From an uncultured bacterium (GTDB lineage Bacteria; Pseudomonadota; Gammaproteobacteria; Burkholderiales; SG8-39), in the NCBI GenBank assembly GCA_965233195.1, contig CBDDSB010000013.1, positions 2,964 to 66,963 of the forward strand: a stretch of DNA of 64,000 nt, given 5' to 3'. Numbering within the stretch: the stretch's first letter is position 1; the number at the start of each line of letters is the position of its first letter. Made by a program: the position numbers and the translations under genes. Shown in pieces: positions 20,666 through 37,930 of this stretch. The notes under the pieces are model-generated. The model was not told the origin of the DNA and ran no database searches. It was given only the letters and a program-made list of their open reading frames with translations.

Positions 20666-23016
20666 ACGTCGTGCCGACCTTGGAGCGCGGGCTGTCCGGC
20701 GCGCTGTTCCTGATCACTCTAACCACCGTGATGTTCCAGGTCCTGCTGACCCGGCTGTTCTCGCTCACGCTGTGGTACCACTTCGCGTTCATGGCCATCT
20801 CGATGGCCATGTTCGGCATGACGGTGGGCGCGCTGCTCGTCTTCCTGCGCCCGCACGCCTGGCCGCAGGCCACGGTGCATGCGGCCATGGGAAAGTGCGC
20901 GCTGCTCTCCGCGGTCTCGATGGCGGCGGCTGCCTTCCTGCACGTGTACCTGTTCCTGCCGAACCCCTACGCGCTGCCGGTGCTGTGGACCTTCCTGTGC
21001 GCGGCCGTGCCCTTCACCTTCAGCGGCATTTTCGTCTGCCTCGCCCTGACGCGCTTCCCGTCGCGCATCGGGCAGCTCTACGCGGTGGACCTGGCGGGCG
21101 CGGCGATCGGCTGCCTCGCGGTGATCGTCGCCCTCGGCTGGCTGGACGGGCTCGGCGCGGTGCTCGCCTGCGCCACGCTGGCGGCGCTGGGCGGGGTGCC
21201 GCTGCTGCGCGGCGGGGCGAGAGCCGCCGCGGTCGCGCTCGCCGCGACTTTCGCCGGCATCACGGCGTGGGCCGGCGTGCACCTCGCCACGCAGAACGTT
21301 TCCGCCTTCCCGATCCGGCACGCCAAGGGCATCGAGGAGGGGATCGTCGAATACGAGCGCTGGAACTCGTTCTCGCGCATCGTCGTGCTGCCGCCGGACA
21401 AGCGCGCCTATCCGATGGGCTGGAGCCTGAGCGTCGCCTACGATGCGCCGCTCGACGTGCCCAACCGCTGGCTGCAGATCGACGCCGTCGCCGGAACCCA
21501 GCTCATCGGCTTCGACGGCGATCTCGCCAAGCTCGAGTTCCTGCGCTGGGACCTGACCAACTTCGTGCACCACTTGCGCCGCGATGCCCGCGTCTGCATC
21601 GTCGGCACCGGCGGCGGCCGCGACATTCTCGCCGCCAAGGTGTTCGGGCAGAAGCGCGCGCTGGCGGTGGAGATCAACCCCAACATCATGCGCGTGGTCA
21701 ACGGGCACTACGGCGCCTTCACCGGCCACCTGGACCGCGATCCGCTGGTGACGGTGATCAACGACGAGGCACGCAGCTACCTGACGCGCGTGAAGGAGCG
21801 TTGCGATATCGTCCAGCTGAGCTTCATCGACACCTTTGCCGCCACCGCCGCGGGTGCTTACGTGCTGGCGGAAAATGCCCTGTACACCATCGAAGGCTGG
21901 AAAGTGTTCCTCGACCGGCTGGAGGACGACGGCCTGCTGGCGGTGGCTCGCGGGGTGACCCCCGATCTGGAGCGGCTGATCGCGCTCGGCCGCGAGTCCT
22001 TGCGGGCAAGCGGCGTGGCACAGCCCGAGCGGCACATGATGCTGGTCACCAACCGGGCCGCGCGGCCGCCGCGTTCGCTCGGTCCGATGGGCATGCTGCT
22101 GGTGCGCAAGACGCCGTTCGGGCCGGCGGAGGTCGCGCAGATCCGCAGCCTGGCAGAGCGCATGCGCTTCGAGGTCGAACTTTATCCCGGCGGCGCGAAG
22201 TCGCCCTTTCTCCTCGCCCTCGCGAGCGGGCGCGGCCTCGCCGGCATGGCCACCCCGCACGGATTGAATTACGACGCCACCACCGACGAGCGGCCGTTCT
22301 TCTTCAACCAGGAGCGCCTCGGCGTTTCGAGCCTGTTCCAGTCGGGGGCGGTGGGGCTGCTGCTGAACCTGCTCTTGGGGGTCACGGTGCTGACGCTGGT
22401 CTGCATCGTGCTGCCGCTGGTGCTGGCGAGAATCGTGCTGCGCCGCTCCGACACCGCTTTGCTTTGCTTCTTCGCCGCGATCGGCGCCGGCTTCATGCTG
22501 ATCGAGATCTCGATGCTGCAGCGGCTGGTGGTGTTTCTCGGCCATCCCGCTTACAGCCTGAGCGTGGTGCTGTTCGTCCTGCTGCTCGCCAGCGGGATCG
22601 GCAGCCGCCTTTCGGTGCTGGTGCCCGATGACCGCCTGGCGGTTCACGGGGTGCGCATCCTGGTGCTGCTCACGGCGGTACTGGCGGCGGCAGGAAGCGC
22701 CGGGCTGCCGCTGGTCGAAGCCTTTCGCGCTTCGGAAGCACCGGTGCGCATCGCCGTCGCCGCCGCGCTCCTCGCGGCGATGGGGATTCTGATGGGCATG
22801 GCATTTCCGTTGGGGATGCGGCTCGCGACGGGGCTGCGCGCGCAGCTGGCGCCATGGCTATGGGGCATCAACGGCGCGGTGTCGGTGCTAGCCTCGGTGC
22901 TGGCGATGGTGATCGCCATGGCATACGGAATTTCGGTGAGCTTCTGGACCGGCGTCGCCAGCTATTTCGCGGCGCTCGGCGCCTTTGCGCTGGCGGCGCG
23001 CGCCCGCGCCGCCTAG
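20662..23016 (+). CDS. polytopic membrane protein with embedded spermidine-synthase-like (class I MTase fold) domain
   Basis: ATG 20662 overlaps the upstream stop (ATGA). N-terminal TM bundle. Central domain 'VCIVGTGGGRDILAAKVFGQKRALAVEINPNIMRVV...VINDEARSYL...CDIVQLSFIDTF'. C-terminal TM bundle. Confidence 0.75.
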   Translation: MNVVPTLERGLSGALFLITLTTVMFQVLLTRLFSLTLWYHFAFMAISMAMFGMTVGALLVFLRPHAWPQATVHAAMGKCALLSAVSMAAAAFLHVYLFLPNPYALPVLWTFLCAAVPFTFSGIFVCLALTRFPSRIGQLYAVDLAGAAIGCLAVIVALGWLDGLGAVLACATLAALGGVPLLRGGARAAAVALAATFAGITAWAGVHLATQNVSAFPIRHAKGIEEGIVEYERWNSFSRIVVLPPDKRAYPMGWSLSVAYDAPLDVPNRWLQIDAVAGTQLIGFDGDLAKLEFLRWDLTNFVHHLRRDARVCIVGTGGGRDILAAKVFGQKRALAVEINPNIMRVVNGHYGAFTGHLDRDPLVTVINDEARSYLTRVKERCDIVQLSFIDTFAATAAGAYVLAENALYTIEGWKVFLDRLEDDGLLAVARGVTPDLERLIALGRESLRASGVAQPERHMMLVTNRAARPPRSLGPMGMLLVRKTPFGPAEVAQIRSLAERMRFEVELYPGGAKSPFLLALASGRGLAGMATPHGLNYDATTDERPFFFNQERLGVSSLFQSGAVGLLLNLLLGVTVLTLVCIVLPLVLARIVLRRSDTALLCFFAAIGAGFMLIEISMLQRLVVFLGHPAYSLSVVLFVLLLASGIGSRLSVLVPDDRLAVHGVRILVLLTAVLAAAGSAGLPLVEAFRASEAPVRIAVAAALLAAMGILMGMAFPLGMRLATGLRAQLAPWLWGINGAVSVLASVLAMVIAMAYGISVSFWTGVASYFAALGAFALAARARAA

Positions 23017-37423: not shown

Positions 37424-37930
37424 CTATTTTATCCTCGCGGAGCGCCGAAATACCCCCGACTTTCCTCCGTGTTTCTCTTCGAGGCGGATCTCGCCGAGGG
37501 TCATGCCCCGGTCGACGGCCTTCACCATGTCGTAGACGGTGAGCAGGCCGACCGCGGCCGCCGTCAATGCCTCCATTTCGACCCCGGTCTGCCCGCGGCA
37601 TTCCACCCGGGCGACGATGCGCACCGCCGGCGGTTTTTTGCTTATTACGAATTCGACCGCGACGCGCGTGAGCGCGATCGGGTGTGCGAGCGGAATGAGC
37701 TCCGCCGCGCGCTTGGCCGCCTGCACCGCGGCGATCCGCGCCACCCCGAGGACGTCGCCCTTCTTGGCGCGCCCGGCGGCGATCAGACGCAGCGTGGCCG
37801 GCTGCATGCTGATCCGGCCCGAGGCGATCGCCACCCGGTGGGTGGCAGCTTTGTCCCCCACATCCACCATATGGGCGGAACCCTTGGCGTCGAAATGGGT
37901 CAACGGCAGGGTCAGCGATTTGCGTCTCAT
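37424..37930 (-). CDS. moaC: cyclic pyranopterin monophosphate synthase MoaC
   Basis: '[25 protein letters not shown]', '[10 protein letters not shown]', '[24 protein letters not shown]'. Confidence 0.9.

Follow-up and report, generated by a model that had tools for sequence, protein, structure and literature searches.

The 64,000-nt stretch examined here (the window), part of contig CBDDSB010000013.1 from an uncultured bacterium of the Burkholderiales lineage SG8-39, carries a minus-strand run of 15 co-directional genes extending from position 37930 to 23013. This array brings together moaC and the sulfur oxidation genes soxYZAXB, the three genes of a MacAB-type pump (a periplasmic adaptor, an ATP-binding cassette (ABC) ATPase and a permease), and six glycan-related genes that begin with galE and end with the gene of a polytopic protein (Table 1). 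Gene models for this window of ~67% G+C were based on codon-position G+C and inspection of start codons, the raw lists of open reading frames (ORFs) being full of shadow frames. An earlier note on this DNA had proposed the gene order from moaC to the polytopic protein, and the gene models, Pfam and NCBIfam support it; the gene names were all confirmed by the two databases.

Table 1. Genes and clusters of the window discussed in the text, with window positions; bit scores are followed by family cut-offs where these apply.
Feature	Position	Strand	Evidence and remarks
bepA-like M48/TPR protease	37952..39394	+	PF01435 and TPR repeats; divergent, upstream boundary
moaC (cyclic pyranopterin monophosphate synthase)	37424..37930	-	168 aa; PF01967, 181.5 bits; first gene of the array
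soxY	36987..37418	-	TIGR04488, 149.5 bits (cut-off 125); ends ...VTIGGCGG
soxZ	36692..36985	-	TIGR04490, 94.2 bits (cut-off 76)
soxA, c-type cytochrome, CASCH	35898..36695	-	TIGR04484, 242.9 bits (cut-off 110); GTG start
soxX, c-type cytochrome, CYNCH	35317..35901	-	TIGR04485, 78.1 bits (cut-off 61); ATGA overlap with soxA
soxB thiosulfohydrolase, Tat signal QRREFLQ	33689..35314	-	TIGR04486, 784.6 bits (cut-off 550)
MacA-like periplasmic adaptor, 516 aa	32142..33692	-	HlyD_3, HlyD_D23; N-terminal membrane anchor
ABC ATPase, MacB/LolD type, 245 aa	31405..32142	-	PF00005; TGATG overlap with adaptor gene
MacB-type permease, 410 aa	30176..31408	-	PF12704, 179.4 bits; PF02687, 76.3 bits
galE-type NAD-dependent sugar epimerase	29205..30179	-	PF01370, 209 bits; opens the island's minus-strand arm
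Membrane SpeE-like protein, 720 aa	27046..29208	-	PF01564, 42.3 bits
GT4-family glycosyltransferase	25895..27049	-	PF00534, PF13692
Class I S-adenosylmethionine (SAM)-dependent methyltransferase	25059..25898	-	PF13489, PF08241; TTG start
GtrA-family small membrane protein	24688..25062	-	PF04138, 70.7 bits; GTG start
Polytopic protein, predicted GT-C fold, 556 aa	23013..24683	-	AlphaFold2 and Foldseek
Second protein with a SpeE-like domain between transmembrane (TM) regions, 789 aa	20647-23016	+	Paralogue of the 27046-29208 protein
Methyltransferase of the convergent arm	19919-20665	+	Pfam
626-aa polytopic protein	18031-19911	+	
TMEM260-like GT-C	15938-18019	+	Pfam
GT2-GtrA fusion	14844-15941	+	Pfam
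GT2	13688-14836	+	Pfam
GT41-TPR	10629-12599	-	Pfam
GT41-TPR	8620-10638	+	Pfam
Cyclic-nucleotide signalling cluster	559-8660	+	Conserved far flank of the variable slot

From moaC to the polytopic protein gene, the junctions measure +5, +1, -4, -4, +2, -4, -1, -4, -4, -4, -4, -4, -4 and +4 nt. Nine are 4-nt overlaps (ATGA, GTGA or TTGA), one is a 1-nt overlap (TGATG), and the gaps span 1-5 nt, which agrees with the counts given earlier; the overlaps between soxB and the adaptor gene (33689-33692) and between the permease gene and galE (30176-30179) both read ATGA, as had been reported. The starts adopted for the methyltransferase (TTG) and GtrA (GTG) genes are the longest options, and downstream alternatives would give gaps of at least 8 nt. 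With spacings of -4 to +5 nt, the genes lie on one strand without room for promoters or terminators between them. All 14 junctions of the array are 5 nt or shorter, a limit kept by 12/30 same-strand junctions in the rest of the window (Fisher p = 1.4e-4). Coding sequence takes up 95.5% of the whole window, neighbouring genes on the same strand are separated by a median of 8.5 nt, and of the seven convergent gene pairs five run into each other at the 3' end (23013-23016, 39391-39394, 41601-41604, 10629-10638 and 61171-61184), leaving no space for terminators; three of these overlaps are exactly 4 nt long and share their stop codons. A terminator scan of the array on both strands returned 13 weak hairpins, against 8.2 +/- 3.0 in shuffled sequences, with 5-6-bp stems that all fall within coding sequence and none at a junction, so that no convincing terminator was seen, in line with the earlier statement that the array lacks a hairpin followed by a T-run. 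A scan of the window against Rfam gave no match, and the array thus holds neither a molybdenum cofactor (Moco) riboswitch nor any further RNA element.

The array was compared with 171 related loci, labelled L001 onward. A first set of 80 loci was anchored on SoxB, with one genome per species, and 70 of these were informative; the best relative in this set shares 79% identity, and the nearest ones are all metagenome-assembled genomes (MAGs) of uncultured soil Burkholderiales. A second set, anchored on the adaptor, comprised 80 metagenome loci at 66-93% identity, again with 70 informative. More distant relatives of the adaptor were sought among 1.8 billion representative proteins, and the gene contexts of seven representatives at 44-55% identity were inspected. 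The same gene order with ATGA junctions recurs in many independent contigs and MAGs (L001, L081, L083-L085, L091-L101 and others), which makes it exceedingly improbable that the array is a chimeric assembly join of unrelated contigs.

In the SoxB-anchored loci, a soxYZAXB cluster behind the divergent bepA-moaC pair is widespread, and 11/70 loci from different species have an adaptor gene no more than 3 kb downstream of soxB; the other 59/70 have none. Of these 11, eight belong to the clade of close relatives, L045 is a Sulfuritalea-like MAG and two are Rhodocyclaceae (L051, L060), in which a TolC-like gene stands between soxB and an adaptor that carries no insert. Seen from the adaptor, soxB is directly upstream in 51/70 loci, whereas in 12/70 moaC is directly upstream with no sox gene between (e.g. 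L086, L124, L157); one member of this latter class, L158, carries a sox cluster elsewhere in the locus. The remaining 7/70 show other arrangements, sox remnants included: soxYZ followed by the adaptor gene in L111, soxX followed by the adaptor gene in L149, and soxZ or soxX, a polytopic gene and then the adaptor gene in L113 and L134. Partial sox clusters ahead of an intact pump (L111, L113, L134, L149 and L164, the last lacking soxAX) suggest that sox decay is ongoing in some populations. Downstream of soxB, L009 and L013 encode a short insert-less adaptor with no ABC or FtsX gene, and glycan genes come next.

What follows the permease gene varies even between close relatives, over 0.8 kb to ~23 kb. 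In L126, L117 and L130, homologues of window positions 4643-8660 begin 0.8-1.7 kb past the permease gene and the glycan genes are absent; other relatives carry galE there, with or without more sugar genes, and in Rhodocyclales the pump is followed by CYTH/CHAD-SixA-MarR genes. The interior of the sox cluster is interrupted as well in close relatives, where soxX and soxB are separated by a 2OG-Fe(II)-oxygenase-like ORF (L084, L091, L092, L096), a toxin-antitoxin-like pair (L097, L101), a methyltransferase-like ORF (L109, L112) or the gene of a polytopic membrane protein (L136); in L087, L088 and L103 a polytopic membrane protein is encoded just ahead of the adaptor gene. The oxygenase-like, toxin-antitoxin-like and methyltransferase-like names come from reading the translations, whereas inspection of full ORFs covered the polytopic proteins only. 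The insertions between soxX and soxB indicate that the locus accepts unrelated genes, and the separate patterns of presence and absence indicate that each of the three modules can occur without the others. Across diverged genomes, gene order is kept within modules only.

These comparisons bear directly on the idea of the earlier note taken in full, a single supra-operon whose sulfur oxidation, export and glycan-modification genes act together, for example in remodelling the envelope during lithotrophic growth. The 15 co-directional, overlapping genes with no terminator between them would fit such a system, as would the pair of GT4 and GT-C genes that lies downstream of sox in several relatives, among them some devoid of the pump (L004, L009, L013). 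The pump nevertheless persists without sox, most sox loci have no pump, the glycan content after the pump differs among close relatives and is absent from the Rhodocyclales lineage, and the glycan genes of the window pair with a convergent plus-strand arm of a 21.5-kb island described below. Gene-order comparison across relatives thus largely contradicts the supra-operon, which we regard as very improbable, and the claim of a joint function is not upheld.

The spacing between the genes was followed by binning junction lengths according to SoxB identity to the window (55-66%, 66-72%, 72-78% and >=78%) and taking medians. In that order, the medians are 207, 99, 11 and 10 nt between moaC and soxY; 102, 26, -4 and -4 nt between soxZ and soxA; 69, 4, 1 and 5 nt between soxX and soxB; and 34, 10, 8 and -4 nt between soxB and the adaptor gene. 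Within the pump, the medians are -1 nt (adaptor to ABC ATPase) and -4 nt (ABC ATPase to permease) in every bin, with L045 departing at the former junction only (+9). The fixed junctions within the pump mark it as an old operon core, while the gap-free joins between modules are recent and specific to this sub-lineage. The locus comparison therefore shows both that the modules come and go independently and that the junctions shrink stepwise.

We consider it probable that the array consists of three independently evolving units, namely moaC with sox, the MacAB-type pump and one arm of a glycan island, which lineage-specific compaction has pressed together. The intergenic DNA between the units would have been eroded to overlaps in the sub-lineage of the window, such that formerly separate operons now abut. 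The backbone order would be the divergent bepA-moaC pair, the pump and then the cyclic-nucleotide signalling genes, with the sox cassette and the glycan genes as facultative occupants. All 15 genes are probably covered by read-through transcription that starts upstream, and ribosomes probably re-initiate at the overlaps, which would explain how soxB tolerates a weak ATT start. Transcripts that continue from soxB into the adaptor gene are plausible, but any co-expression of the three units would be a by-product of compaction and not the sign of a dedicated sox-export-glycan pathway. The suggestion of the earlier note that sulfur oxidation is co-expressed with export and glycan genes accordingly survives in part: co-transcription is plausible and the soxB-adaptor adjacency recurs, occurring in the 51/70 loci and in a second lineage and hence not unique to this strain, whereas the dedicated system falls away.

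Conserved neighbourhoods of adjacent, functionally separate operons have been termed 'uber-operons'. The present locus resembles such neighbourhoods, and operon merging by intergenic loss, in that its modules keep their order on a backbone although each is dispensable, and in that the junctions between modules shrink stepwise while those within a module stay fixed. It differs in the extreme packing of the window, where 14 consecutive junctions measure 5 nt or less and convergent genes share their stops.

Despite the overlaps, the run could also be transcribed as several units, driven from promoters inside upstream coding sequence (for instance in moaC, in the 3' end of soxB or in the permease gene), so that the modules would not be co-expressed. 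Less compact relatives show gaps of 40-230 nt exactly at the moaC-soxY and soxB-adaptor boundaries, which suggests that those units once had promoters of their own. Some promoters in this genome must in any case be intragenic: the starts of moaC and the bepA-like gene are 21 nt apart (37930-37952; ~20-30 nt in relatives), a spacing that places both promoters inside the neighbouring coding sequence. Set against this, the 4-nt overlaps speak for translational coupling of genes that share one mRNA, and a scan for sigma-70-like promoters found no site in 18 kb, with 1.5 expected, a result that is uninformative at ~68% G+C and covers one promoter type only. Separate transcription units are therefore a tentative possibility, less favoured here than read-through of a compacted run.

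Several observations weigh against three units that are merely adjacent, and favour a narrower functional link between sox and the pump. The adaptor of L045 is 47% identical to that of the window and carries the same LTXXQ insert, and four relatives of it from Rhodocyclales/Sulfuritalea (L161-L164) all have soxYZ(AX)B upstream of adaptor, ABC ATPase and permease genes; in all five loci the adaptor is orthologous to that of the window and has the LTXXQ insert. The backbone of this second lineage is different, with Crp and Kup upstream and CYTH/CHAD-SixA-MarR downstream; sox-pump adjacency between such different flanks offers real comparative support for a link, gene order kept at such divergence being the usual comparative sign of a functional or regulatory relation. 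The soxB-adaptor junction is 5 nt or shorter in 31/57 adjacent loci in which it was measured, and no T-run terminator occurs in any of them, the spacers of 40-160 nt containing G+C-rich hairpins devoid of T-runs. The genes soxCD are missing from 11/11 pump-linked sox loci, against soxC in 24/80 of the SoxB-anchored loci, a comparison confounded by shared ancestry. Finally, the metagenome loci are phylogenetically non-independent, so that the counts exceed the number of independent events.

Together, these points would be accommodated if, in two or more betaproteobacterial lineages, the pump with its LTXXQ-bearing adaptor served Sox systems without soxCD as a facultative accessory, being co-transcribed with soxB and clearing periplasmic products of the truncated pathway such as sulfane sulfur or polysulfide, or damaged SoxYZ adducts, with the glycan genes unrelated. 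The tight soxB-adaptor junctions kept in the clade agree with this, and MacB-type pumps in general draw their substrates from the periplasm. The pump is retained, however, where sox is absent or decayed (the 12 moaC-adaptor loci and the five with partial clusters) and is missing from 59/70 sox loci; within the second lineage itself, three unrelated genes separate soxB from the adaptor gene in L162. In L163, a dsrE-like gene lies at this position. None of the seven distant members of the adaptor subfamily (0/7) stands beside sox: P0245 lies in a divergent bepA-moaC context with the adaptor gene next to moaC, P0243 follows bepA of a moaC-bepA pair and precedes ABC ATPase and permease genes, and the other five occur in unrelated contexts. 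The pump subfamily is thus not confined to sox loci, and its pairing with moaC/bepA extends to more distant members than its pairing with sox does. An account of the sox-pump adjacency by shared ancestry alone was set aside in its simple form, being softened by the Rhodocyclales loci and partly restored by the seven distant contexts. Among the titles and abstracts found on soxB with MacB and thiosulfate, and on 'soxYZAXB', none points to a sox-pump link. On balance, we regard an accessory role of the pump in sulfur oxidation as unlikely and retain the compaction of independent units as the preferred explanation.

The Sox module itself appears, from its sequence features, to be a truncated form for periplasmic thiosulfate oxidation, with soxYZAXB and no soxCD. 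The five proteins all score above their NCBIfam equivalog cut-offs, and the expected signatures are present: the SoxY GGCGG terminus together with SoxZ, the CxxCH pair of SoxAX and SoxB with a Tat signal. Neither soxC nor soxD was found in the 64-kb window by tblastn (E < 1e-15) or Pfam, as had been observed before, though they could lie elsewhere in the genome. Truncated Sox systems (SoxYZ, SoxAX and SoxB without SoxCD) are known from Allochromatium vinosum and many Betaproteobacteria, and the window matches them in the five core proteins, the GGCGG, CxxCH and Tat features and the lack of soxCD; it differs in having moaC 5 nt before the cluster, a pump gene in 4-nt overlap after it and a probable ATT start for soxB. 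The GTG start of soxA overlaps the stop of soxZ (GTGA). On the opposite strand within soxY, ARAGORN called a 'tRNA-???' with a 4-base anticodon (37268-37361, plus strand), which was regarded as very likely a false positive.

The start of soxB is unusual, as ATG, GTG and TTG are all missing before the Tat motif and the sole candidate is ATT at 35314-35312. Beyond the soxX stop TAG (35319-35317) the sequence reads CC and then ATT CAA CGG CGC GAA TTT (I-Q-R-R-E-F), and position 1 of the SoxB family model corresponds to residue 2, directly after the ATT codon. In relatives, the homologous codon is TTG in 42 cases and CTG in L114 and L119, while 44 loci at greater distance have ATG. It is likely that soxB begins at a weak AUU codon whose use requires ribosomes that have just terminated at the soxX stop, 2 nt upstream.

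The pump encoded downstream is related to MacAB, with an insert-bearing adaptor and a split transporter. The adaptor scores above the cut-off of TIGR01730 (168 bits) and below that of the MacA equivalog (173.9 bits, cut-off 342), and its best sequence matches in the PDB are E. coli MacA structures (5nik and 9qgy, residues 30-346). An insert of ~125 aa (residues ~345-470) matches the LTXXQ family (Spy/CpxP-like, PF07813, 28.6 bits). Adaptors with this long insert make up a large subfamily, with dozens of clusters at 50% identity that align end to end; a tblastn search of a plasmid collection with the adaptor recovered only ordinary insert-less adaptors (covering residues ~20-350) and hence no informative gene contexts, and an exact-sequence look-up of the window's adaptor found no matching record. 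For the ABC ATPase, the matches are to the MacB model NF007826 in its N-terminal part (267 bits) and to LolD (226 bits), and the permease matches positions 254-646 of the MacB model, combining the MacB core domain with FtsX and four TM helices predicted from hydropathy. Whereas MacB fuses ATPase and permease, here they are two genes with a 4-nt overlap. Compared with E. coli MacAB-TolC (PDB 5nik), the likeness lies in an adaptor with MacA structures as its best PDB matches, the permease with MacB core and FtsX domains and the MacB-like ATPase; the differences are the separate ATPase and permease genes, as in LolCDE or YknYZ, the adaptor below the MacA cut-off with its LTXXQ insert, and the array's lack of a TolC-like gene. 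No TolC-family partner occurs among the annotated genes of the window, and one may be encoded elsewhere in the genome; in L051 and L060, the TolC-like gene mentioned above precedes a related pump. In L166, the genes near the pump include those of a two-component system and of a standalone LTXXQ/Metal_resist protein, a hint of a connection with envelope stress.

The last gene of the array encodes a polytopic protein with no match in Pfam (E <= 1), NCBIfam or PDB sequences, profile search included, and its stop overlaps that of the convergent plus-strand gene by 4 nt (23013-23016). At least 779 homologues were found, all unnamed, one of which (P0487) is fused to GtrA. An AlphaFold2 model built with 52 sequences reached a pLDDT of 89.3 and a pTM of 0.90; a single-sequence model (pLDDT 43.6) was discarded. 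Foldseek placed ArnT (5f15) at the top (E = 1.8e-6, probability 1.00, TM-score 0.50), followed by STT3/PglB, ALG9, PMT4 and DPY19, and the top 23 matches are all GT-C enzymes. Among the 52 homologues, D49 and D110 are invariant and E111 nearly so. The modelled structure identifies the 23013-24683 product as a predicted GT-C-fold glycosyltransferase of a family without described sequence membership. A GT4 gene accompanies the GT-C gene in L004, L009, L013, L017 and L120, with an orthologue of the window's GT4 protein detected by tblastn in L017 and L120 only; homologues of the 626-aa polytopic and TMEM260-like proteins come after the GT-C gene in L009 and L017. Upstream in the array, galE follows the pump in some relatives only, and the membrane SpeE-like protein places a central spermidine-synthase-like (SAM-fold) domain between two TM bundles of ~seven helices each. 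In L103, this membrane protein likewise occurs in two copies.

Paralogous pairs lie on opposite strands in this region, where the SpeE-like proteins, the GT41-TPR proteins, the methyltransferases and the GtrA domains each occur twice. This paralogy, together with the glycosylation genes on the plus strand, indicates that the array's final six genes make up one of the two arms of a 21.5-kb island (8620-30179). The GtrA family is associated with the translocation of polyprenyl-phosphate-linked sugars. GtrA, the GT-C fold and the GT2-GtrA fusion make periplasmic-face glycosylation with polyprenyl-phosphate-linked sugars the most likely activity of the island. Known systems of this type (ArnC/ArnT, GtrABC, PMT/TMEM260-type) resemble it in the placing of GtrA beside an ArnT-like GT-C protein and in the GT2-GtrA fusion and TMEM260-like GT-C protein of the convergent arm, and the window adds two proteins with a SpeE-like domain between TM regions, two GT41-TPR proteins and the unmatched GT-C family.

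Both flanks of the locus are conserved. The divergent pairing of bepA and moaC is kept in relatives, and the cyclic-nucleotide signalling cluster at the far side encodes a CHASE2-cyclase, a class II phosphodiesterase, a cNMP-binding-rhodanese fusion, a GAF-MshEN-T2SSE ATPase and a GAF-HD-GYP protein. The cNMP-rhodanese fusion holds the only other sulfur-related domain in the window. In the more distant L030, L049 and L050, homologues of the 559-8660 genes lie just 2-5 kb past soxB, which indicates that the pump and the glycan island fill a variable slot between conserved flanks.

Were the array to work as a single system, the Sox pathway would gain an export step, a point of interest as the disposal of sulfane sulfur by soxCD-less oxidisers is still unsettled; the evidence points otherwise. 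In a compact genome of high G+C content, 4-nt overlaps and missing terminators are not by themselves a sign of shared function, and it is the presence of modules across relatives that separates true operon cores from artefacts of compaction. The comparison also brings out three by-products of interest: an undescribed GT-C family of large size, a MacA subfamily in which an LTXXQ insert is widespread, and a soxB gene that apparently starts at AUU.

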